Of a stretch of 64,000 nucleotides of DNA, positions 13,804-52,126 are shown one piece after another. Origin of the DNA: a bacterium (GTDB lineage: Bacteria > Patescibacteriota > Minisyncoccia > Phycocordibacterales > UBA2100); NCBI GenBank assembly GCA_016789445.1, contig JAEUQT010000003.1:82600-146599 (forward strand). Direction: 5' to 3'. The notes beneath the pieces are model-generated. The model ran no database searches, had not been told where the DNA came from, and saw only the letters and a list, made by a program, of their open reading frames with translations. Position numbers and translations under genes: made by a program. The first letter of the stretch is position 1. Every line of letters starts with the position of its first letter.

Positions 13804-14340
13804 TCACACACCGGGATTCACAAGCTCGGCGAATCGTTTGCGGACTTTCTCGATCTTCGGCTCGATGACGAGCATGCAATACGGCGCTGATGTGTGGTTG
13901 GCGTAGTAGTTCCGGTGGTAATCCTCTGCGGGATAAAAGTCCGTTGCGGGAACGAGCTGCGTAACGACGCGCGTGCCGTCGTTGAGGGACTCATCCACTT
14001 CCTTGATGATGCGTTCGGCGGTCTTCTTCTCTTCCTCGTCGGCGTAGAAAATGATGGAGCGGTACTGTTCGCCGATGTCGTTCCCCTGCCGGTTCGGCGT
14101 CGTCGGATCGTGCGAGCCGAAAAAGACCGTGATGAGGTCTTCGTAGCTGACGAGCGAAGGATCGTACGTGATACGGATCACTTCCGCGTGACCGGTAGTT
14201 CCGGCACTCACTTCGGCGTACGTCGGATTCACGACGTGGCCACCGGCGTATCCCGGTTCGACTTTCGTCACGCCCTTCAGCATCAGGAATACCGCCTCCG
14301 TGCACCAGAAGCAACCGTTGCCGAAGACCACCTGCTTCAT
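13804..14340 (-). CDS. msrA: peptide-methionine (S)-S-oxide reductase
   Basis: GCFWC active-site motif and the overall MsrA pattern (GHAEV, YHRNY). Confidence 0.92.
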   Translation of the reverse strand: MKQVVFGNGCFWCTEAVFLMLKGVTKVEPGYAGGHVVNPTYAEVSAGTTGHAEVIRITYDPSLVSYEDLITVFFGSHDPTTPNRQGNDIGEQYRSIIFYADEEEKKTAERIIKEVDESLNDGTRVVTQLVPATDFYPAEDYHRNYYANHTSAPYCMLVIEPKIEKVRKRFAELVNPGV

Positions 14341-15254
14341 ACCGCTTGGGCAACCGCTTCAGGCAGTTTGGGTGAATTGAGCTGCGCGACCTTGTACATG
14401 GCAAAAAGCAGGATCGCGGCGGCGAGGTATTGGGTCCAGATGAGCGTCGTGCCGTAGAGGAAGTAGTCGATGATGATGGCGGTCATCGGGAACGCGAGCT
14501 CCACGATCGCCGAGATACGCGCAGGAGTCGTTTTCAGGCCGCGATAATAGATCCACAGCGCGAGCATGCCGGTGGAGAGCGCGATGCCGAAGAGTGTGAG
14601 AAGTTGGATCCCCGTGACCGCGGTGACGGAATCAAGCTGGCCGAAACCGATCACGAATCCGAATGCCAAGGGAACGGTGAGGAGGAACCGCATACCGGTT
14701 ACCAAGGTATTGCTGTGTCCGATGAGCACGTAGCGCGAGAAGGCGGTGGAGGAACCCCACGCGATCGCCGCAGCGAGCGCCAGAAGCGCGGCGCTGACGT
14801 GTGCACCATCTCCCGACATATTCACGACGCCGTTCGGGAAGGTCATGAAGTATCCGGCGACCAAGGCGAGTGCGGCCCACGGCAGATACTTGGTACTCAC
14901 CTTTTCCCCGAGCACGAACCACGCCGTGATGATGGTGAAGATCGGCTGCAGCTTCTGGAGGAGGAAGACGACGCTGAAGGAGATGTAATTGACCTTCATC
15001 AGTGCCGTCGTGAAAAAAAGCGTCCCGAGGACGCCTGAAAGAAGCGAGACGAGGCCGAGCGCGGTGAGTTCGTTCTTGCTGAGCACTTCCTCCTTCCATG
15101 CTTTCCAGAGGAACGGCGCGATGAGGATGGCGCCGATGAGGTGTTCATAGAACACGATCGTTGCCGGCGGGAGACCGTAGAGCGAGCGTCGCAGGATGCC
15201 ATCCAGGCCCCACAAGACAGCGGCGATGAAGATAAGCAGAGGCCCGTACTGCAT
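14337..15254 (-). CDS. EamA/DMT-family transporter
   Basis: 305 aa with about 10 TM helices in two EamA-like halves. Overlaps the msrA start by 4 nt. Confidence 0.8.
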   Translation of the reverse strand: MQYGPLLIFIAAVLWGLDGILRRSLYGLPPATIVFYEHLIGAILIAPFLWKAWKEEVLSKNELTALGLVSLLSGVLGTLFFTTALMKVNYISFSVVFLLQKLQPIFTIITAWFVLGEKVSTKYLPWAALALVAGYFMTFPNGVVNMSGDGAHVSAALLALAAAIAWGSSTAFSRYVLIGHSNTLVTGMRFLLTVPLAFGFVIGFGQLDSVTAVTGIQLLTLFGIALSTGMLALWIYYRGLKTTPARISAIVELAFPMTAIIIDYFLYGTTLIWTQYLAAAILLFAMYKVAQLNSPKLPEAVAQAV

Positions 15255-22588: not shown

Positions 22589-23638
22589 CTACACGTTTCG
22601 TCGCTGTGCGATTTCGCTATAGATGGAAAGGAATGCGAAGAGAAGGCTGATGGAAAGGGGGCCGAGGAACAGGCCGATCGGACCGAAAAATGCGAGGCCG
22701 CCGAGGACTGAAAGCAGGACGAGGAGCGGGTGGAGATTCACTCCCCTGCCGATAAGCTGGGGACCCAAGAAGTTGTCGATCATGCCGACCGCTACGATAC
22801 CCCAGATGGTGAGGCCGAGCGCAGAACCCGTGTGTCCGGTGAAGTACATAAAGAGGACGGTCGGTATGAATACCAATCCGGTGCCAAGACCCGGGATCAA
22901 GGCGGCGATGGCCGTCACCGTGCCCCAGAGGATGCTGTTGGGAACGCCGAAGATGGTGAAGCCGATTGCCGTGAGCGAGCCTTGGATGAGCGCGATGGTG
23001 AGGTTCCCCTTGATGATGGAATTCACCGCGAGCTCGAGCTTGTCGGCGATGCTTTCATCGTAGGTGTCTTTGAGCGGTGAGAGATGGACGAGCGTATTTT
23101 TCAGTTTGCGGCCATCACGAAGAAGGTAGTAGAGCGCGATGAAGAAGAGGAATGCTTTGAGGAGGATGCTCGCGACGCCGGATGCCGCCGTACCGATGTG
23201 CTGGATGATCCATTGGAGTGCGCCCTCCGCGTACTGTGAGATATTCGCAGGGATATCCTGCGTGAATCCGCTTGCGGCAGGCACGTAGCGTGCGACGACT
23301 CTTTCGAGATCGTTGGCCGCGGTCTGGATTTCTGCACGAGTATCCCTATCGGAGATCTGCGTGTAGAGACTGCGTGCTTCGATGCCGACCTGCGTTCCGA
23401 TGATGGTGACGGGAACGAGAATGATGATGACGCTGATGAGGACCGTGATGAGCGAAGCGAGCGAGGGCCAGCGCGGGATGGTATGCAAAATGCGGCGATA
23501 GAGCGGATTCAGGATGACCGCGAAGACGAGGGCGAGGACCAAGGGCGCGAGGAACGGCTGGAAGATGAAATACGTGAGGACGAGCGCGCCGACAAGGAGC
23601 GCCAGAAGGAAGTACATGCCCAGATGCTGGGTGTGCAT
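22589..23638 (-). CDS. AI-2E family (PerM/UPF0118) transporter
   Basis: 349 aa. Multi-TM protein with the conserved C-terminal GLFLGP-type region. Confidence 0.85.
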   Translation of the reverse strand: MHTQHLGMYFLLALLVGALVLTYFIFQPFLAPLVLALVFAVILNPLYRRILHTIPRWPSLASLITVLISVIIILVPVTIIGTQVGIEARSLYTQISDRDTRAEIQTAANDLERVVARYVPAASGFTQDIPANISQYAEGALQWIIQHIGTAASGVASILLKAFLFFIALYYLLRDGRKLKNTLVHLSPLKDTYDESIADKLELAVNSIIKGNLTIALIQGSLTAIGFTIFGVPNSILWGTVTAIAALIPGLGTGLVFIPTVLFMYFTGHTGSALGLTIWGIVAVGMIDNFLGPQLIGRGVNLHPLLVLLSVLGGLAFFGPIGLFLGPLSISLLFAFLSIYSEIAQRRNV

Positions 23639-31899: not shown

Positions 31900-32601
31900 C
31901 TACTTCACCGAGATGCTTTCGATGATCATCGGCTGGACCGGGCGGTCGTTGGCACCCGTCTGCGCTGCTTCGATCTTCGCGACGACGTCCATGCCGGCCG
32001 TCACTTTGCCGAAGACGGTGTGTTTGCCGTCGAGGAAGTTGTTGGCGGCCACGTTGATGAAGAACTGGCTGCCGTTGGTGTTCGGGCCCGCGTTCGCCAT
32101 CGAGATGGTGCCGATTTCGTTCTTGTTGTTGGCATGGATCTCATCCGCGAACTGGTAGCCTGGGCCGCCGGTTCCCCAGCGTGCCTGCATCGCCTCATCC
32201 TTTGAAAGCGGATCGCCGCCCTGGATCATGAACCCTTTGATGACGCGGTGGAACTTAGTGCCGTTATAAAAACCTTCCTGCGCGAGCTTGGTGAAGTTCG
32301 CGACCGTGTTCGGTGCGTCGGTACCGAGGAATTCGATGGTAATGTCGCCCTGATTCGTGTGAAGCGTTGCCTGCATAGCTTTCTGGATATTAGTACTAGT
32401 AGTAGATGTGCTGGTAACCGGCTGCGTTCCAGCCGCTGCGCCCGTCTGCGCGCCGCGTGCGGCTGCGAACTGATCCATAAAACTCGCAGTCATCGAATCG
32501 ACGTTCCCGCCCGTGGCCGTGGCATCCGAGCCCGAAAAGAGCCAGACGCCGCCTGCCGCGAGAGCGACGACGAAGACGCCCGCTACGATCGCATTCTGCA
32601 T
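31900..32601 (-). CDS. peptidyl-prolyl cis-trans isomerase (cyclophilin type), membrane-anchored/exported
   Basis: FHRVIKGFMIQGGDP and SMANAGPNTNGSQFFI motifs. N-terminal TM segment. Confidence 0.9.
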   Translation of the reverse strand: MQNAIVAGVFVVALAAGGVWLFSGSDATATGGNVDSMTASFMDQFAAARGAQTGAAAGTQPVTSTSTTSTNIQKAMQATLHTNQGDITIEFLGTDAPNTVANFTKLAQEGFYNGTKFHRVIKGFMIQGGDPLSKDEAMQARWGTGGPGYQFADEIHANNKNEIGTISMANAGPNTNGSQFFINVAANNFLDGKHTVFGKVTAGMDVVAKIEAAQTGANDRPVQPMIIESISVK

Positions 32602-43641: not shown

Positions 43642-43893
43642 TTAATCACCTTTCTCACCAAGCTGCTCATCGATGCTGGTCGCGGCCTCCTTAACGTCTT
43701 CCAATTCCGAACGTATATCCTCCATCTGGCTGCTTAGCTCACCCTCCTCCTGTTCGATCTTAGCTTCAATCAATTCGAGCTTTTCCATCACATCCGCATG
43801 TTGCGATTCTTGCGCGTCAATCAGCTTTTCCATGAGCTCGGAGAGCGCGTCAACATCCTGACGGAGCTTCTTGATCTCGGGATTATCGAACAT
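43642..43893 (-). CDS. acidic coiled-coil protein (83 aa)
   Basis: Heptad-rich, E/D/L-rich sequence. Its stop abuts the start of the next gene, suggesting coupling. Confidence 0.55.
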   Translation of the reverse strand: MFDNPEIKKLRQDVDALSELMEKLIDAQESQHADVMEKLELIEAKIEQEEGELSSQMEDIRSELEDVKEAATSIDEQLGEKGD

Positions 43894-44291: not shown

Positions 44292-47200
44292 TTAACGTCG
44301 AAGTATTGAACCTTCAGAAATGCCAATGAATCTCTCGAAGAAGCTCGTCAATTTATTCAAGACACTATCACGTTTCCGCGAGCGCTCTCCACTTGGGGAG
44401 AAGCGAGAAACTGGTGGCAGCACCTTTGTGAGTGCTGTCCCCGTTATGGCGACTGCGCCGTCGCGAAAGGCATTTTGAACGAAATTATAGGTGGCATCAG
44501 GATCCAGATTTTCATCCTTGATGATTTGGTCCAATTCTTCCACTTTCTTTTCCTCCACATACTTCTGCCAATCCTCGTCCACGACCGAATTCGCATCGAG
44601 CGATGAAATGAATTTGTTGATGAGGTCTTTCTTGTTGCGCAATTCAACGCTCGAATCGATTGCCTTGTTGATGTCAATCAAGAGCTCTTTGTTCTTAGTA
44701 TGGTCTTCGTGGTACTTCTTGATGAGGGCAAGGATGTAATCGATATTGATCTCGATCTGCTTAATGAGCTCCATCTCAAACACCAGATCGTCGTTGATGT
44801 TCTCTTTCTCCTTGTCGATGCTGGTACGGAACTCGTTGTACAGATCAATGTACATGCTGTGGTAGTCCTGCAGATCTCGCGCAGAAAGTATTTCGTTTCC
44901 CGTGAACTGGTCGAAGGTCACCAAGATATTGCGCAACCGCAATACAGCGCCGTACAGCTTTATGAAGTCCTTTTGGCTCTGTTCACCCATAATGCGCTCG
45001 CCCACAGGAAACTTTTCCAGAAGTTCGTCTACCAAGCTCTTGTAGCCCCGCACCTCCTTGTTACGTTCCGTGTAGCCGTTGTAGTAGTCCTCGTATGCTT
45101 TGAGAAGCACGATGCCGCTCGCTTCCTTGTCTCCGAAAAGAGCGATTGCTTCGTTGGTAGCTTTCTCTAAATTGCGGAAGCAGACGATATTGCCGAAGGT
45201 CTTCACGCTGTTAAGGATGCGATTCGTACGGGAATATGCCTGCAGTAGCCCGTGGAGTCGGAGATTCTTGTCCACCCACAGCGTGTTGAGTGTGGTGGCA
45301 TCAAAACCGGTCAGAAACATATTGACCACAATGAGAATATCAATCTCGCGACTCTTTACGCGCTCACTCACGTCTTTATAGTAGTTTTGGAACTTATCTG
45401 ACGAAGTATCGTACGATGTGCCGAACATCGCATTGTAGTCGGCGATAGCACTCTCTAAGAACTCACGCGAACTAGCATCAAGTCCGCTAGTGTCTTCCGA
45501 GTTTTCATCAACCATCCCGTCGGCATCCTCGTCGTTGACGCCAAAACTGAAGATTGTGGCGACCTTCAATTTTTTGTCACTGGGAACGTCCGCGAGCTGT
45601 TTTTTGAACTCGGCATAATACTTCTTTGCGACATCAATGGAAGACACCGCGAATATTGAATTGAAACCGGCAAGGCGTCTGTCTTTCAGCTTGTAAAAGC
45701 TATTGCGCTTTGTCTTTTGGTCGAAGTGTTCGCGTATATAACGCACGATATTCTCGAGTCGTTCAGGCGAAGCGAGAGCTGCCTCACGATCTATACCGCT
45801 CACTTGCTTGTCCTCGATGTCTTCCGCTTCGCGGATTGTGGAGACGTAATCAACCTTGAAGGGCAACACGTTCTTGTCCGCAATCGCGTCCACAATCGTA
45901 TACGTATGGAGCTTGGTGCCGAATGCCTGCTCGGTGGTCTTTAGGTCTGGACGACCACCAGACGAGGCGTTTGCGGCAAATATTGGCGTACCCGTGAAGC
46001 CAAATAGGTGGTAGTTATTAAATGCCTTGGTGATAGCGGCATGCATGTCGCCGAACTGCGAACGATGACACTCATCAAAAATAAGCGCTACATGCCCATC
46101 AAATATGGTGTGTCCGCTGTTGCGCGCTATGAAGCGGTCGAGCTTTTGGATGGTGGTAACGATGATGCGAGCCTTAGAGTCTTCAAGCTGCTTTTTCAAT
46201 ATTGATGTCGAGGTGTTGCTGTTCGCCGCTCCTTTCTCAAACTTGTCATACTCACGCATTGTCTGATAGTCGAGATCCTTGCGGTCTACGATGAAAAGGA
46301 CCTTGTCGATGTACGACAATTTGCTGGCAAGTTGTGCTGCCTTGAAGCTGGTGAGCGTTTTACCCGATCCAGTGGTATGCCAGATGTATCCACCTGCCTC
46401 TACCGTGCCTAGCTTTTTATAGTTGGTACTTACCTCGATGCGGTTCAAAATGCGCTCTGTAGCCACTATTTGATACGGGCGCATAACCAGCAGTTGGTGG
46501 TCGGTCGTGAACACGCAATAGCGTGTGAGGACATTGAGGAGCGTATGCTTGGCAAAAAACGTCTTAGCAAAGTCCATGAGGTCAGCAATCGGCTTGTTGG
46601 TCGCATCTGCCCACCAACTGGTAAACTCAAAGCTGCTGCTCGAACGCTTACCACGCTTTGCTGCGCCTTCGTTTGCTTCCTTGATATGCTGCCAGCGAGT
46701 CGTATTGCTGTAATACTTCGTATGCGTGCCATTCGAGATAACAAAAAGCTGGATGTATTCATAAAGCCCCGAAGCCGCCCAGAAGCTCTCGCGCTGATAG
46801 CGATTAATTTGGTTGAATGCTTCTTGAATAGCCACCCCACGACGTTTGAGTTCAATGTGGACTAACGGCAAGCCGTTCACGAGGATGGTCACGTCATAGC
46901 GATTCGCGCGCGCACCATCCTCGGTCGCGTACTGATTTATGACCTGTAACGTGTTGTCATGCACGTTGTCTTTACGGAGTAGGTAGATGTTCTTTGTGGA
47001 GCCATCATCCCGTGTGAGATTTTTTATGTAGTCCTCTTGAATGGTTGCTGTCTTTTCTTCAATGCTCTGGTTAGGGTTGGCTATTTCACCCTTAAAGAAC
47101 CGTTCCCACTCCTTGTCGGTAAAGATGTAATCGTTGAGCTTCTCAAGCTGGGTGCGGAGGTTTGCAATGAGGTCGTCTTCGCTTGTGATGGGGAGGCAAC

Positions 47201-47354
47201 CATAGGCCTGGGATTCGAGCTGCTCGATAAACGCACGTTCAAGCTCCGCTTCGCTCTGATAGTGTTCCGCGCGGTTCTTGTCCGGCGTGTATTCAGCTAC
47301 GACGGTGCTCTGCGCGTTCTCGGCAACTAAATTGTATTTGTTATTAACTGACAT
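44292..47354 (-). CDS. hsdR: type I restriction enzyme, R subunit
   Basis: 1020 aa. An N-terminal nuclease region and an SF2 helicase core (TGSGKTLT, DECHRSQ, and later motifs). Confidence 0.95.
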   Translation of the reverse strand: MSVNNKYNLVAENAQSTVVAEYTPDKNRAEHYQSEAELERAFIEQLESQAYGCLPITSEDDLIANLRTQLEKLNDYIFTDKEWERFFKGEIANPNQSIEEKTATIQEDYIKNLTRDDGSTKNIYLLRKDNVHDNTLQVINQYATEDGARANRYDVTILVNGLPLVHIELKRRGVAIQEAFNQINRYQRESFWAASGLYEYIQLFVISNGTHTKYYSNTTRWQHIKEANEGAAKRGKRSSSSFEFTSWWADATNKPIADLMDFAKTFFAKHTLLNVLTRYCVFTTDHQLLVMRPYQIVATERILNRIEVSTNYKKLGTVEAGGYIWHTTGSGKTLTSFKAAQLASKLSYIDKVLFIVDRKDLDYQTMREYDKFEKGAANSNTSTSILKKQLEDSKARIIVTTIQKLDRFIARNSGHTIFDGHVALIFDECHRSQFGDMHAAITKAFNNYHLFGFTGTPIFAANASSGGRPDLKTTEQAFGTKLHTYTIVDAIADKNVLPFKVDYVSTIREAEDIEDKQVSGIDREAALASPERLENIVRYIREHFDQKTKRNSFYKLKDRRLAGFNSIFAVSSIDVAKKYYAEFKKQLADVPSDKKLKVATIFSFGVNDEDADGMVDENSEDTSGLDASSREFLESAIADYNAMFGTSYDTSSDKFQNYYKDVSERVKSREIDILIVVNMFLTGFDATTLNTLWVDKNLRLHGLLQAYSRTNRILNSVKTFGNIVCFRNLEKATNEAIALFGDKEASGIVLLKAYEDYYNGYTERNKEVRGYKSLVDELLEKFPVGERIMGEQSQKDFIKLYGAVLRLRNILVTFDQFTGNEILSARDLQDYHSMYIDLYNEFRTSIDKEKENINDDLVFEMELIKQIEINIDYILALIKKYHEDHTKNKELLIDINKAIDSSVELRNKKDLINKFISSLDANSVVDEDWQKYVEEKKVEELDQIIKDENLDPDATYNFVQNAFRDGAVAITGTALTKVLPPVSRFSPSGERSRKRDSVLNKLTSFFERFIGISEGSILRR

Positions 47355-48552
47355 ATTCGGGGAAGGTTAAGAGCTTGCCTCGATAGTATTCGTACTGTTT
47401 GCGCCGTGCCGAGATTTCCGCCGGGAGACCTTCGGATTTGTCATTCACAAGCGCATCAAACTTGTCCAGAATTGACACAATATGTTCTTGCTCTTCCTCT
47501 GACGGAACTGGTACGGGTATCTTGTTGAGGTTTGTTTTGTTGAGCTTTGGTTGTGCTCCTCCGCTGACATAAGATCGTAAATCGATAGAATTCAAATAGA
47601 TCTCAATCAGACGTCGCATTGCATAACTCTCAAACTTAAGAACATGAGCGTGGTTATTGACCCAGGTCTTTCCTGAAATCGAAAAAGCGATTGGCGTCGT
47701 TCTTGCAAGAAGATTGGCTCCATCTTCTGAAACAAGTAAGTAGTCACCCTCAAATATGTAGTCGCTAACATAGTCAACAATGCCGGACGCCCCATAGTAA
47801 GGAACGTTTCCAGCCGTCCGTGCTGATCGCGTGACTGGTTTACGCTTTGAGTCTAAGTTGATGGAAATTCTATCGAGCGTCGTCCATCTTACTCTCTCAC
47901 TCTCGTTAAACGTCAAGAGCTCAGAACGATAATGCTCGTATTGCTTCCCTCTCGCTTCTAACTCTGCTTCTAACTCTGCTTCTAACTCTGTAAAAGCATC
48001 GAGGATGCTTGCAATCTCCTGCTGGATTTCAAGTGGCGGAACGGGAATTTTGATTGATGCCAATGTTGCCATTCGTACTCCTTTAAGCGTACTGCCGACC
48101 GATTGACTTTGATACTGGTCCTTTGCGATGTCTGAACCAAGGATATACATCAAATACCTTGGCAATATTGTTTCTTGCTTGGGTTTTATGATGAAGACAC
48201 TTTCACTGCAATTCCAGTTGTTTGTCGGAATATCTGCCAATGCAACTTTTCCAATAGTTCCAATACCAGAAAACAGCACGTCGTTCAATTCCAAGTCAGA
48301 GCGGTTCTGAATTATTCTTACAGCTTCATCATTAATCTTATCTGTCTTGTCACTGAACTGAACCTTACCAGAAGTAATCTCCTTGACCGTTACATAAAAA
48401 TTGGTTGCGTCGGGCGTATTCAATCTGAAATTCTGGCGCGGATTCAATCCTGTCTTAATTGATTTTGTGATAACTCCCAACTCCCTAAACTCCACACCTT
48501 TCGAGCATTTTTCAGCAATCAACTTTTCAATTTGACTCTGGTGTTTGGTCAT
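47344..48552 (-). CDS. hsdS: type I restriction enzyme, S (specificity) subunit
   Basis: 402 aa. Two target-recognition domains separated by a central coiled-coil region containing (ELEA)x3. Overlaps hsdR by 11 nt. Confidence 0.92.
   Translation of the reverse strand: MTKHQSQIEKLIAEKCSKGVEFRELGVITKSIKTGLNPRQNFRLNTPDATNFYVTVKEITSGKVQFSDKTDKINDEAVRIIQNRSDLELNDVLFSGIGTIGKVALADIPTNNWNCSESVFIIKPKQETILPRYLMYILGSDIAKDQYQSQSVGSTLKGVRMATLASIKIPVPPLEIQQEIASILDAFTELEAELEAELEARGKQYEHYRSELLTFNESERVRWTTLDRISINLDSKRKPVTRSARTAGNVPYYGASGIVDYVSDYIFEGDYLLVSEDGANLLARTTPIAFSISGKTWVNNHAHVLKFESYAMRRLIEIYLNSIDLRSYVSGGAQPKLNKTNLNKIPVPVPSEEEQEHIVSILDKFDALVNDKSEGLPAEISARRKQYEYYRGKLLTFPEYVS
47954..47989. repeat. 3 x 12-bp perfect tandem repeat inside hsdS
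   Basis: GCTTCTAACTCT x3 on the + strand, encoding ELEAELEAELEA in the central conserved region. Confidence 0.9.
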
Positions 48553-48554
48553 GG

Positions 48555-50156
48555 TTATTTTTTACCTTCAATATCAGCAACGATAGCGTCGATAGCGTTA
48601 CGGAGTTCGTTTTGGCGAGCGACAATGTTCGCAATACTCTCGTTCAGCTCCTTGATATCAACTACCTCACGAGTGTCTTTTCCGTCCACATAGCTTGAGA
48701 CCGAGATATTGTAGTCGTTCTCCGCAATATCATTGTTGTTCACCAGCGCGGCAAAGTGCTCAACGTCTTCTCGGTCAATAAAGGCATCGAGGATCTTTTT
48801 GCGATTTGTTTCGCTGAGTTTGTTCTTATTGCCACTGCGAACGAACTCGGTCGATGCGTCAATGAAAAACGTCTTATTGTCTTTCTTACTCTTTTTCAGA
48901 ACAATTACGCAGGTCGCAATAGTTGTGCCGAAGAAGAGATCCGGCGGCAGCTGGATTACAGAGTCGATGTAGTTGTTGTCTATGAGATACTTGCGGATCT
49001 TCTGCTCTGCACCACCGCGATAGAGCACGCCAGGGAACTCGACGATGGCTGCCGTGCCGTTCGTCGCAAGCCACGAGAGCATGTGCATTGTGAATGCGAG
49101 ATCCGCTTTGCTCTTAGGCGCGAGTACACCTGCCGGAGAGAAACGGGGGTCGTTGATGAGAATGGGATTAGCGTCACCCTCCCATCGGATTGAGTAGGGA
49201 GGGTTCGATACGATGGCCTCAAATGGCTCATCGTCCCAGTGCTTAGGGTCTGTGAGAGTATCACCATGCGCGATATTGAACTTCTCGTAGTTGATATCGT
49301 GCAAGAACATGTTGATGCGGCATAGATTGAACGTGGTGAGATTGATTTCCTGTCCGAAAAACCCCTGACGTACTTTGTCTTTACTCAGTACCTTGGCGAA
49401 TTTGAGCAACAGCGAACCGGAGCCGCACGCAGGGTCATACACTTTATTGACTTCCTTTTTGCCTACCGTAGTTATCTCTGCCAGTAGCTCGCTTACTTCC
49501 TGTGGCGTAAAGAACTCGCCGCCGGACTTACCGGCGTTGGAGGCGTACATGGTCATGAGGAACTCGTATGCATCGCCGAAAGCATCTATTGAGTTGTCGG
49601 CATAGTCGCCAAAGCGCAAACCCCCTATTGCCTCAAGGAGCTTTGCGAGCTTCTGATTGCGTCTTTCTACGGTGTTGCCCAGCTTGCCGGAGTTAACGTC
49701 GAGGTCGTCGAAAAGTCCCTTGAGGTCATCCTCGCTATCTGCGCCCTTCGCGGAGCTCTCTATGTTGTTGAAGACGCGCTCAAGTGTTTCGTTGAGGTTC
49801 GCGTCATTCCGAGCGTTTTTTGTGACGTTTACGAACAGCTCGCTTGGCAGTATGTAAAAACCTTTCTCTTTTACCGTATCGGCGCGACCAAATTCAGCTT
49901 GTTTATCTGAAAGTGATGCGTAATCAAAATCCTTTTTTCCAGCACGCTGCTCCTCTTCATTGATGTAGCTCTCGAGGTTCTCGCTAATGAAGCGATAGAA
50001 GAGCATTCCAAGCACGTACTGCTTAAAATCCCACCCGTCCACACTGCCACGAAGATCGTTGGCAATCTGCCAAATGGCACGATGCAATTCTGACCGCTCT
50101 TGGTCTTTCGTGACTGCTGAACCTTGTTTGTTCACCATATAGTCGATCTTGATCAT
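48555..50156 (-). CDS. hsdM: type I restriction enzyme, M (N6-adenine methyltransferase) subunit
   Basis: HsdM N-domain (IWQIANDLRG...YVLGMLFYRFIS), the AdoMet motif VYDPACGSGSLL and the catalytic motif NPPY. The start is set at MIKIDYM (50156), 1 nt after the stop of the upstream mini-ORF; 50138 is also possible. Confidence 0.92.
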   Translation of the reverse strand: MIKIDYMVNKQGSAVTKDQERSELHRAIWQIANDLRGSVDGWDFKQYVLGMLFYRFISENLESYINEEEQRAGKKDFDYASLSDKQAEFGRADTVKEKGFYILPSELFVNVTKNARNDANLNETLERVFNNIESSAKGADSEDDLKGLFDDLDVNSGKLGNTVERRNQKLAKLLEAIGGLRFGDYADNSIDAFGDAYEFLMTMYASNAGKSGGEFFTPQEVSELLAEITTVGKKEVNKVYDPACGSGSLLLKFAKVLSKDKVRQGFFGQEINLTTFNLCRINMFLHDINYEKFNIAHGDTLTDPKHWDDEPFEAIVSNPPYSIRWEGDANPILINDPRFSPAGVLAPKSKADLAFTMHMLSWLATNGTAAIVEFPGVLYRGGAEQKIRKYLIDNNYIDSVIQLPPDLFFGTTIATCVIVLKKSKKDNKTFFIDASTEFVRSGNKNKLSETNRKKILDAFIDREDVEHFAALVNNNDIAENDYNISVSSYVDGKDTREVVDIKELNESIANIVARQNELRNAIDAIVADIEGKK

Positions 50157-50157
50157 T

Positions 50158-50343
50158 CTAACGCACAAGACTGATTCCCCACCCCAGAATGCTGAGAAAA
50201 AGAACCCAGCTGAGAAATTGCACAAAATGCCCATATGCCCCATGTACAACAGCACTCGCCAAGCGCCACAACGGATATAGCAAAAAGAAAGCTGCCCTCA
50301 GAACTGCATTGAGCAAATATTCCCACCATCGCTGTCTGTACAT
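50158..50343 (-). CDS. small 2-TM membrane protein (61 aa), first gene of the R-M operon
   Basis: ORF track (MYRQRWWEYLL...). Its ATG follows the shared 35-nt leader at the same spacing as in the NYN gene. Its TAG is 1 nt from the hsdM ATG. Confidence 0.5.
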   Translation of the reverse strand: MYRQRWWEYLLNAVLRAAFFLLYPLWRLASAVVHGAYGHFVQFLSWVLFLSILGWGISLVR

Positions 50344-50348
50344 TGGGG

Positions 50349-50383
50349 AATCCTACGCCCAAAATGAAGAAACGCCACTGCTT
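50349..50383 (-). promoter_or_regulatory. 35-nt leader repeat, copy A (upstream of the R-M operon)
   Basis: Minus-strand sequence AAGCAGTGGCGTTTCTTCATTTTGGGCGTAGGATT, 31/35 identical to copy B. Confidence 0.6.
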
Positions 50384-50412
50384 GTGGGCTTGTGCACACC
50401 CCTTGAATTCAC

Positions 50413-50441
50413 TTGATTTTAACGAGGCGCTCGGTTATAAT
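50413..50441 (+). promoter_or_regulatory. near-consensus sigma-70 promoter on the + strand
   Basis: TTGATT-17 nt-TATAAT. Confidence 0.5.
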
Positions 50442-50466
50442 ACATGCAAGATCACCACGGAAAACG

Positions 50467-50497
50467 CCCTTCAAGGCTCGTCCTTGCGGGGTTTTTT
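50467..50497. terminator. hairpin with flanking A- and T-runs (bidirectional terminator)
   Basis: CCC-TT-CAAGG-CTCGT-CCTTG-C-GGG followed by GTTTTTTC. On the minus strand it follows the NYN gene stop. Confidence 0.55.
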
Positions 50498-50500
50498 CTT

Positions 50501-50986
50501 TCAGCCCCGCTTGGTATATTCGAGTTTCTTACGCAAATCTGACACAAAGGCCAGATAACCCGAATCGAACTTCTTAAGCAAAGCAGAATATTTTGCTTGG
50601 TTCGGGATAAGTAATTTCTCAAACTTCTGCTGCTTGACCAGGTAGTCGACAAGACAATAAAAATCCCCGTCGCCAGTGACGATGACCGCTTTAGAATACT
50701 CATCACGATCGATCATTGCCTGTAGCACAAGCTCTGCGTCACAATTACCCTTTGTAGTCCCGTCCTTATAACGTAATGTGGGTTTGAAAATGAGAATATA
50801 GCCCTTCTCTTGTAGCGATTTATACAAGTCGGCATGTTTCTCGACAAAACCGATGAAAAGATATGCCTTTTCGACCTTATATTTGTCCTTCAAATACCGT
50901 CGGAACCTCAACCAATCAATCTTCCACCCAAGACCCTGGACGGCAAGATTGAGGTTCTGACTGTCGATAAAGGCGTAATTCGCCAT
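50501..50986 (-). CDS. NYN (LabA/PIN-like) domain protein
   Basis: From MANYAFIDSQNL. The later GNCDAELVLQAM and VIVTGDGDF motifs are typical of the NYN/LabA-like nuclease fold. Confidence 0.85.
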   Translation of the reverse strand: MANYAFIDSQNLNLAVQGLGWKIDWLRFRRYLKDKYKVEKAYLFIGFVEKHADLYKSLQEKGYILIFKPTLRYKDGTTKGNCDAELVLQAMIDRDEYSKAVIVTGDGDFYCLVDYLVKQQKFEKLLIPNQAKYSALLKKFDSGYLAFVSDLRKKLEYTKRG

Positions 50987-50993
50987 ACGAATT

Positions 50994-51028
50994 AATCCTA
51001 CGCTCAAAATGAAGAAAATCCACTGTTT
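50994..51028 (-). promoter_or_regulatory. 35-nt leader repeat, copy B (upstream of the NYN gene)
   Basis: Minus-strand sequence AAACAGTGGATTTTCTTCATTTTGAGCGTAGGATT. Confidence 0.6.
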
Positions 51029-51051
51029 TCAGGCTAAAGCCCGAGCCAAGA

Positions 51052-51081
51052 CTTGGCTAAAATGGCGCCATTTTAGCCAAG
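51052..51081. repeat. 30-nt perfect palindrome
   Basis: CTTGGCTAAAATGGCGCCATTTTAGCCAAG. Preceded by the partial copy GCCAAGACTTGGC. Confidence 0.9.
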
Positions 51082-51087
51082 GGCGCC

Positions 51088-51666
51088 CTAAACTAGCTCG
51101 TAGACTGTCCCCGCACGGATTCCTGACCTTTTGAGCTTTCCTTCGCGCACGAGCTGGCTTAGGTAGTTAGTCGCAGTCGCATCGCTCACCCGGAGCAGCT
51201 TTTCGACGTCGTCGTTTTTGATGGAGCGCTTGGCTTTGGCGAGGACAATGATTTTCTCCAATTTGGCTCGCTTTCGGAACTGCACTTTCTCGAGGGCGGC
51301 GTAGAGGCGATCTTTGATGTTTACCCCGTAGGATGCCGCGGGAGCGGCTATCGTATCGGGGGTGATTGCTGTCGGATTGGTTGGCGGTGAGACAGGGTCG
51401 GGCCCCTGTCGCAAGGCCGGACCAGCTTGGCTGGGAGGCGGGGTCGCGGAAAATCGTTCCGACGATTTATCTGTGACCGGGTTAGACGGCGGCCGTGAGG
51501 GTTGCGGCACTTCTGGTGCGGGAGTTTCCACCGGTGGGATTTCGGGAGATGGCTGGACAGCTTCGGGAACGGGAGGCGGCGGCGAAGCCGCCGCCGGGCT
51601 CTCGACAACAGGCGCGGTCGAAGTCGGAGTCTCTACGCTTACGCCTGCATCCGCGACGTCGCTCAT
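51088..51666 (-). CDS. Pro-rich protein with C-terminal winged-helix-like domain
   Basis: 192 aa. A P/S/A-rich disordered N-half, then DDVEKLLRVSDATATNYLSQLVREGKLKR (HTH-like). Confidence 0.55.
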   Translation of the reverse strand: MSDVADAGVSVETPTSTAPVVESPAAASPPPPVPEAVQPSPEIPPVETPAPEVPQPSRPPSNPVTDKSSERFSATPPPSQAGPALRQGPDPVSPPTNPTAITPDTIAAPAASYGVNIKDRLYAALEKVQFRKRAKLEKIIVLAKAKRSIKNDDVEKLLRVSDATATNYLSQLVREGKLKRSGIRAGTVYELV

Positions 51667-51730
51667 ATATGGATTATACGCCTCATATAAAAAACCGCCG
51701 CAGATATTCTCTGCGACGGGGAAAGAGCGG

Positions 51731-52003
51731 TTAGGCTAGTTTCGCGCGATGGATGGCTTCGGCGAGCTTCGGATCAGCCTCGTTGCAGATGCTGTCGAAG
51801 TAATTGTTCTGCACCATGTTCTGATGCTGGTGCAAAACGACCTGCTGTGCGAAATGGACGCTGTTTGCGTGTTCGCAGCTACGGCAAAGCCATGGCCCGA
51901 GCGCGACGCCGTTGCGAACGGACTTCGCGACCTGGCTTTCCTCGACCGGTTTACTACATTCGTCGCATCGAGGATCAGGAACGGGAACAAAGTAATCAGC
52001 CAT
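51731..52003 (-). CDS. hypothetical zinc-ribbon-like small protein (90 aa)
   Basis: CDEC...CRSC cysteine pairs; ORF track. Confidence 0.5.
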   Translation of the reverse strand: MADYFVPVPDPRCDECSKPVEESQVAKSVRNGVALGPWLCRSCEHANSVHFAQQVVLHQHQNMVQNNYFDSICNEADPKLAEAIHRAKLA

Positions 52004-52126
52004 AACAACCTCCTGTTTTCCTGGAGCATCCTATCTTCAAATAGAATAAAAGCCACCCCCGCATTGCTCCCGTGTGGTAGCTGTGGTTTAGTGCCCCCAG
52101 CCTGAACCTTAGGAAAGGATGAGGAC

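Follow-up and report, generated by a model that had tools for sequence, protein, structure and literature searches.

The stretch of DNA analysed here (hereafter the window) comprises 64,000 nt of contig JAEUQT010000003.1, from a member of the Patescibacteriota (assembly GCA_016789445.1), and all coordinates are window positions unless a contig is named. On its minus strand lie a gene for an NYN-domain protein and a type I restriction-modification (R-M) operon, each preceded by a copy of the same 35-nt block, which is likewise read on the minus strand. The block before the NYN gene is referred to as copy A, and the one before a 61-codon open reading frame (the mini-ORF) and hsdMSR as copy B. 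The block is probably a sigma-70-type core promoter for leaderless mRNAs, which was copied locally and now drives acquired genes.

The repeated block and the genes behind it

Copy A (AAACAGTGGATTTTCTTCATTTTGAGCGTAGGATT) occupies positions 50994–51028, 7 nt upstream of the NYN start codon (ATG at 50986), and copy B (AAGCAGTGGCGTTTCTTCATTTTGGGCGTAGGATT) occupies positions 50349–50383, 5 nt upstream of the ATG at 50343 that opens the mini-ORF. The cores of the two copies are identical at 31 of 35 positions. An earlier note on this DNA had reported such near-identical blocks ending 5–7 nt before both start codons, and this was borne out; of its outer coordinates, the start (50349) was correct and the end (51029) was off by one (51028). 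Extended without gaps, the match reached 42 nt at 83% identity (50349–50390 and 50994–51035), which was the longest ungapped match between the two. The flanks of the copies showed no mutual similarity, and conservation stopped at the functional edges of the promoter. A 32-nt degenerate pattern matched the 64-kb window only at 50349–50380 and 50994–51025, with no match (0/100) in dinucleotide-preserving shuffles.

The gene identities given in the earlier note (NYN, HsdM, HsdS and an EcoR124-type HsdR) were confirmed. The NYN/LabA-like gene (50501–50986, minus strand) encodes 161 amino acids (aa) and matched Pfam NYN at 1.3e-11 and, weakly, the PADLOC NYN model at 1.5e-5. Its N-terminus (MANYAFIDSQ) aligned with those of homologues. 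Behind copy B, the mini-ORF (50158–50343, minus strand) starts at the predicted transcription start and ends with a TAG at 50160–50158, just before the start of hsdM. The minus-strand genes hsdM (48555–50156, with its ATG at 50156 or 50138; Pfam N6_Mtase and HsdM_N), hsdS (47344–48552; Pfam Methylase_S in two matched stretches) and hsdR (44292–47354; Pfam HSDR_N, ResIII/SWI2_SNF2 and EcoR124_C) form one operon in which all three subunits carry diagnostic domains, as in type I R-M systems of the EcoR124 (type IC-like) kind. With a hairpin at 50460–50498 after NYN, the earlier view of a regulatory cassette duplicated before two separately terminated units was upheld.

The search for further copies proposed in the earlier note yielded a third, diverged copy in the window (52027–52058, minus strand) and others in related genomes. 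The third copy consists of GTGGCT (52056–52051), a 17-nt spacer and TAGGAT (52033–52028), followed by a 24-nt untranslated region (UTR) with GGAGG and the ATG at 52003 of a 90-aa gene (51731–52003, minus strand; weak zinc-ribbon match), after which a terminator-like site is found at 51719–51695. It scored E = 8.5e-5 against a hidden Markov model (HMM) of the family whose training set included the third copy itself. The window thus holds at least three copies within 1.7 kb.

Promoter geometry and the leaderless-mRNA signature

The block would be composed of a weak -35 element (GTGGAT or GTGGCG), a 17-bp T-rich spacer and TAGGAT as the -10 hexamer. In copy A (50994–51035 as extended), the -35-like GTGGAT at 51023–51018 is followed by the 17-nt spacer TTTCTTCATTTTGAGCG, by TAGGAT at 51000–50995 and, after 8 nt, by the NYN ATG. 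In copy B (50349–50390), GTGGCG at 50378–50373 is followed by the 17-nt spacer TTTCTTCATTTTGGGCG, by TAGGAT at 50355–50350 and, after 6 nt, by the ATG at 50343. Transcription is predicted to start at, or at most 2 nt from, the A of the ATG, and the mRNAs of the NYN gene and the hsdMSR unit would be leaderless. We infer both the identity of the sigma factor and the mechanism of copying.

This geometry recurs in the genome at large. A TANNNT hexamer ending exactly 6 nt before the start codon was present in 11 of 75 window ORFs, compared to 0.46 expected per offset (approximately 24-fold), and neighbouring offsets gave counts of 0–3. Among 95 starts called independently by a database gene finder at four related loci, 20 had TANNNT at offset 6. 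The -10 forms found at exactly this distance in many window genes were TATACT, TATAAT, TACAAT and TAGGAT; other genes carried GGAGG, which is the Shine-Dalgarno (SD) sequence used by the SD-led genes of this genome. Two other window genes have the arrangement of TAGGAT, 6 nt and ATG itself, and in one of these a perfect TTGACA stands 17 nt upstream. Starts with this signature were seen, for example, at 14337–15254, 22589–23638, 31900–32601 and 51088–51666, as well as on the related contigs L016, L020 and L023. The genome therefore appears to use leaderless mRNAs heavily, with TANNNT (often TATACT) at -6 in approximately 15–20% of genes.

A TANNNT motif 6–7 bp before the ORF has been experimentally validated as the -10 box of leaderless genes in Deinococcus radiodurans (PMC12340547), and TANNNT near the start was the standard computational signature in a survey of bacterial leaderless genes (PMC3160421). 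In a full-text literature search, no paper was found that describes leaderless gene expression for Patescibacteria, the candidate phyla radiation (CPR). Because TAGGAT sits at the position that the leaderless -10 hexamers of this genome occupy (TANNNT at -6), it is most likely a -10 hexamer rather than a ribosome-binding site (RBS). In the third copy it cannot be an RBS, since 24 nt lie between it and the ATG and the UTR brings a GGAGG of its own. The earlier assignment of TAGGA as probable ribosome-binding purines is not supported.

Copies in related genomes

An exact-pattern scan with TTCTTCATTTTGNGCGTAGGA across 185,579 species genomes gave three matches, in Alphaproteobacteria, which were without flank similarity and were taken as chance. 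The same scan gave no match in IMG/VR viral contigs and, in JGI metagenomes, retrieved one related organism on two contigs (L014 and L015). With chance hits, no viral match and a single related organism, a widespread repeat was ruled out.

Orthologous loci were retrieved via a conserved 224-aa flanking protein. In L015, the block (GAGTGGATTTTCTTCATTTTGGGCGTAGGAT) is separated by 6 nt from the ATG of a gene for a type IV restriction enzyme, Mrr (Pfam Mrr_N and Mrr_cat; PADLOC 4e-91), which is followed by a DndB-like gene. The close relative L016 carries two copies. The first (L016a; CAATGGATTTCCTTCATTTTGAGGTAGGAT, 6 nt, ATG) lies ahead of a MazG-like–HAD gene pair and has ATGGAT and a 16-nt spacer after a 1-nt deletion; by synteny, the third window copy occupies the slot of this MazG-like gene's promoter. 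The second (L016b) lies ahead of a type IIG-like methyltransferase gene and has kept the -35, the -10 and their spacing, with a diverged spacer sequence. A more diverged copy in L023 is upstream of a MazG-like gene, with TAGGAT still 6 nt from the ATG. TAGGAT was unchanged in all eight aligned copies (8/8). The three well-conserved copies (A, B and L015) all read GTGG(AT/CG), 17 nt, TAGGAT. L016b and the copy before the 90-aa gene likewise have a -35 to -10 spacing of 17 bp; in L016a it is 16 bp. Between TAGGAT and the ATG lie 6 nt in copy B, L015, L016a and L023, and 8 nt in copy A.

The known family comprises seven members in four organisms, and the genes behind it are non-homologous: NYN, the mini-ORF/hsdM unit, the 90-aa gene, Mrr, MazG-like and the type IIG-like methyltransferase. 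All known copies lie inside one hypervariable island, and a family HMM run on the window and approximately 64 kb of related loci found no copy outside the variable region. The block would have been copied locally, with at least three copies in the window and more in the same hypervariable region of related genomes.

Several observations weigh against a promoter for leaderless mRNAs. The count of 20 in 95 starts takes in orthologous genes, so that its items are not independent. The gap between TAGGAT and the ATG in copy A is 8 nt, not 6. The -35 is weak, with a 2/6 match to TTGACA, and GTGGAT, GTGGCG and ATGGAT agree with it at TG alone; the blocks' own -35/-10 pairs were not listed in a sigma-70 consensus scan of the window. 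TAGGAT contains AGGA at a legal SD spacing, so an RBS role is compatible with the sequence, and copies A and B have no GGAGG. Finally, the near-identity of the spacer exceeds what a plain promoter needs.

Spacer conservation and a candidate regulator

When anchored on the -10 hexamer, copies A and B had 30 of 35 positions in common, copy A and L015 had 31, and copy B and L015 had 29, compared to a mean of 11.7 and a maximum of 20 of 35 for 14 other promoters of the window. The likeness to L015 persists despite only 60% aa identity between the two organisms in the adjacent flanking orthologue and 67–74% DNA identity in two conserved flanking segments. It fits recent copying or transfer of a promoter-sized segment; it also fits a spacer that is itself under purifying selection, which would hint at an operator overlapping it.

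We therefore considered, as a tentative possibility, that the spacer doubles as the site of a lineage-specific regulator and that the driven genes form a co-regulated defence regulon, which would extend the promoter reading rather than exclude it. Besides the conservation of the spacer, two observations are consistent with this: several of the driven genes are defence genes, and in the window as in L016 the promoter is directly preceded by a winged helix-turn-helix (wHTH) gene. This conserved gene (51088–51666, minus strand), directly upstream of copy A, encodes a 192-aa protein, proline-rich at the N-terminus and with a winged helix at the C-terminus (weak Pfam FaeA/PCI matches), which makes it a candidate regulator. 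It has its own leaderless promoter (TATAAT at 51678–51673, 6 nt, ATG), and its orthologue in L016 (56% aa identity) is directly upstream of the L016b promoter. However, no orthologue of the wHTH gene was found on the 12.8-kb L015 contig, the block has neither a dyad nor clear direct-repeat symmetry, the spacer sequence was not kept in L016b or in the copy before the 90-aa gene, and recent copying or horizontal transfer could also explain the block identity. Co-regulation, which the earlier note had raised, is possible through a DNA-binding factor.

Directly after the wHTH gene lies a perfect palindrome of 30 nt (51052–51081, minus strand; z = -2.62 in the window and z = -3.56 in L016). L016 retains the hairpin (approximately 14499–14530), with a conserved AAATGGCGCCA core and altered stem bases around it. 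No U-tract accompanies the hairpin, which may serve as a non-canonical terminator or as a palindrome bound by a protein.

A further elaboration, which we regard as rather improbable, is a portable "expression socket", in which leaderless promoter and operator together would capture defence genes at +1 under one lineage-specific regulator and so form an exchangeable regulon without an integrase. Its cargo would be type I, type IIG-like and type IV restriction enzymes together with NYN, possibly captured by short-homology recombination during natural transformation.

The acquired genes and the transcribed-leader hypothesis

The NYN gene and hsdMSR have GC contents of 0.436 and 0.43–0.49, respectively, compared to approximately 0.60 in flanking host genes. 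Neither cargo brought the block, since homologues of both occur without it, and composition and homologue loci point to low-GC, horizontally acquired genes that arrived without the block.

The NYN family is very large (at least 7,978 matches) and highly conserved, with identities of 67–86% among the best 120; many of the named relatives come from CPR lineages, and a few are labelled otherwise (Ignavibacteriae, Undibacterium). Homologues at 72–86% aa identity had unrelated neighbourhoods without the block, including sortase/pilin genes, HD and MazG genes, an integrase, and a DndB/Vsr/Dcm cluster. A leader travelling with NYN was ruled out: the seven homologue loci with readable DNA (75–82% aa identity) showed unrelated upstream DNA and neighbourhoods. 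Given such variable neighbourhoods, the degree of conservation in this family is unusual for a gene that moves around. On the metagenomic contig L004, two tandem NYN paralogues have an upstream motif of approximately 30 nt in common (CCTGCCTGCCGGCAGCTAGGCAAAAYGAMGAT; 355–445 and 1310–1398) and are neighbours of DndB-like, Vsr and Dcm genes; here too, an upstream element is repeated at NYN genes in a defence context.

The hairpin between NYN and copy B (50460–50498, minus strand) is imperfect, preceded by an A-tract and followed by TTTT; its predicted stability of -15.1 kcal/mol (z = -1.05) is not significant alone. Terminator-like sites were also listed on the plus strand at 50472–50490, within this hairpin, and it is probably a weak or bidirectional terminator. 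On the plus strand, a sigma-70-like match (TTGATT, 17 nt, TATAAT; 10/12) at 50413–50441 points antisense towards the 3' end of NYN, and the terminator-like hairpin and T-run at 50472–50490 follow approximately 30 nt past it. The pair could be the source of a very short antisense transcript, or chance.

The mini-ORF encodes a hydrophobic orphan. Neither a set of 1.84 billion representative proteins nor the related R-M loci contained a homologue, which ruled it out as a conserved gene; it had no Pfam or PADLOC match, and the database gene finder made no call there. It would be translated by ribosomes loading at the 5'-terminal AUG. Homologue N-termini favoured the hsdM start at 50138, and an SD sequence is absent before both 50156 and 50138. 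As hsdM lacks an SD sequence, it would be reached by termination-reinitiation, that is, by translational coupling to the mini-ORF.

The closest hsdM relatives (84–91% identical) have a 67–68-aa helix-turn-helix (HTH) gene (HTH_3, HTH_17 or XRE type) tightly upstream, ending 2–4 nt before hsdM, and a large serine recombinase is adjacent in two of three neighbourhoods of hsdMSR relatives (coordinates in the relatives: L024 1–963 and L026 2340–3623; HTH genes at L024 3793–3996 and L026 3728–3934). Nucleotide homology between these relatives and the window starts only at approximately 50115, inside hsdM. A leader travelling with the R-M system was ruled out, the three closest hsdM-homologue loci having HTH genes instead of the block. 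These neighbourhoods suggest that serine-recombinase elements carry this family of type I R-M systems together with a controller-like gene. The window copy has lost both, and the native HTH controller module appears to have been replaced in the window by the local promoter and an orphan ORF.

These results bear on the central proposal of the earlier note, namely that the block is a transcribed 5' UTR whose TAGGA is the RBS and which, as a common RNA target of a small RNA or of the NYN RNase, couples NYN to the type I R-M system. We consider this unlikely. AGGA stands 7–9 nt before the ATG, a permitted SD spacing, and NYN proteins are predicted nucleases. Against this, no sigma-70-like promoter was found on the minus strand in the intergenic spaces upstream of copies A and B. 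Folding with RNAalifold gave -0.91 kcal/mol without covarying pairs, and Rfam covariance models gave just two chance-level matches (E = 0.33), neither inside the blocks; a structured RNA or riboswitch was ruled out on these grounds. Furthermore, the SD sequence of the genome is GGAGG, TANNNT at -6 is its leaderless signature, and the third copy has its GGAGG downstream of TAGGAT. The block also precedes Mrr and MazG-like genes with no NYN gene nearby, and homologues of NYN and of hsdMSR are found apart from one another and with no block. Were transcription to start at the ATG, as in the promoter reading, neither the NYN protein nor a small RNA would have a leader RNA to act on. The earlier note had held that its proposal would fall if the 35-mer were a widespread repeat, which it is not, or if homologous R-M islands lacked both the leader and the NYN neighbour, which is what the hsdMSR homologues showed. 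Neither the transcribed leader nor the wiring of NYN to type I R-M through it is therefore supported; the adjacency of NYN and hsdMSR looks like co-residence in a defence-rich variable island.

The variable island and the recombination-site hypothesis

Synteny with L016 defined three conserved anchors: a 175/194-aa gene, the 192-aa winged-helix gene, and a block of a 153-aa gene, RelB and glyoxalase. Between them, slot 1 of the window holds the 90-aa gene and slot 2 holds NYN, the mini-ORF–hsdMSR unit and two small genes (89 and 83 aa). In L016, slot 1 holds the MazG-like gene, HAD and a 254-aa gene, and slot 2 the type IIG-like methyltransferase with an S subunit. Directly downstream of hsdR, at the conserved right-hand edge of the variable region, are small orphan genes and a RelB/ParE (YafQ-like) toxin-antitoxin pair (43642–43893 and neighbouring ORFs; L001 17878–18421).

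The placement of the copies relative to these slots raises the possibility of a recombination site, an att-like or anchor sequence for cassette insertion or exchange, as in an integron or in tandem accretion, whose promoter look would be secondary. We give this little credence. In its favour, direct repeats flank a single 645-bp gene unit (NYN), and the block stands at the upstream edge of variable slots in three genomes. Contig ends at the locus are also suggestive, though not conclusive. Contig L003, from a strain 97% identical, ends at window position 50395, 5 nt before copy B, and exact look-up of HsdM found it in just the two source samples, with none on the contigs of L003's sample. Five related-strain contigs (L017, L018, L020, L021 and L022) end just after the AHSA1 gene. 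The contig ends suggest strain-level variation starting there but could be assembly artefacts; such breaks have many possible causes. On the other side, no integrase or recombinase was present among the called genes for approximately 10 kb on each side (window 40501–60986), the block contains no attC-like palindrome, and two HMMs found no copy after hsdR, which accretion would require. The large serine recombinases adjacent to related R-M operons are not known to make long direct repeats, which also counts against this hypothesis.

The remaining candidates were set aside: extracytoplasmic function (ECF), sigma-54 and Bacteroidetes-type promoters in a by-eye comparison with consensus motifs (the AAC...CGT spacing of 22 nt is too long, GG-N10-GC does not occur, and the A of TAnnTTTG is lacking from TCATTTTG), and antisense coding on the plus strand of the block (ATGAAGAAA...), with ORFs of 65, 41 and 12 codons in the three copies.

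Comparison with known systems

The closest parallel to a locally copied core promoter is the class of putative mobile promoters (Matus-Garcia, Nijveen and van Passel 2012; PMC3488235), whose authors suggest that random duplication by recombination may account for families of two or three copies. As in these, near-identical non-coding DNA lies right upstream of coding regions that are not homologous, within and across related genomes, conservation stops a few nt before the start codon, and the family is small, as is typical. The block differs in its length of 35–42 nt, compared to an operational threshold of 50–100 nt. It measures 42 nt at 83% identity, where the definition asks for at least 50 nt at at least 80%; being below the 50-nt threshold, it was filed as working like a putative mobile promoter and not as a member of the class. 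It further differs in being an exact -35 to -10 core promoter that would feed leaderless mRNAs, and in having its copies clustered in one defence-rich CPR island rather than dispersed.

Leaderless promoters of Deinococcus-Thermus and Actinobacteria (PMC12340547, PMC3160421, PMC3898074) likewise have TANNNT 6–7 nt before the start, with a 17-bp spacing to any -35, and coexist with GGAG-type SD-led genes in one genome. Here the pattern is deduced from sequence for a Patescibacteria-like genome. The new point, on the same basis, is that one specific promoter sequence, spacer included, is reused before several acquired genes.

Likeness to an R-M controller (C-protein) lies in the small ORF tightly upstream of, and coupled to, the first R-M gene, the position held by the HTH gene in relatives; in contrast, the mini-ORF has no HTH and the DNA upstream of it has no palindromic C-box. 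Integron cassette arrays share with the locus short, similar direct repeats before successive unrelated genes in a variable array. They differ from it in their integrase, which is missing from the called genes around the locus, and in their attC-type imperfect palindrome, also missing here; in addition, the repeats here have the geometry of promoters and are located at the 5' end of each gene, and every unit has a promoter of its own.

Significance for gene expression in CPR bacteria

As CPR/Patescibacteria are for the most part uncultured, the signals that govern their gene expression have hardly been studied. The locus offers sequence-level evidence for heavy reliance on leaderless mRNAs in a Kaiserbacteria-like lineage, an assignment based on how distant homologues of the flanking protein are named, and the block is a variant of known promoter propagation combined with the leaderless "-10 adjacent to ORF" architecture. 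For annotation, it counsels caution, as a purine-rich hexamer immediately ahead of an ATG, TAGGAT for example, can be a -10 box and not an RBS. It also provides an example of how foreign defence genes may be made expressible: a 35-nt host promoter is reused and transcription would start from their ATG, so that a compatible ribosome-binding site would not be needed. Should the conserved spacer double as an operator, this locus would mark out a co-regulated defence regulon.

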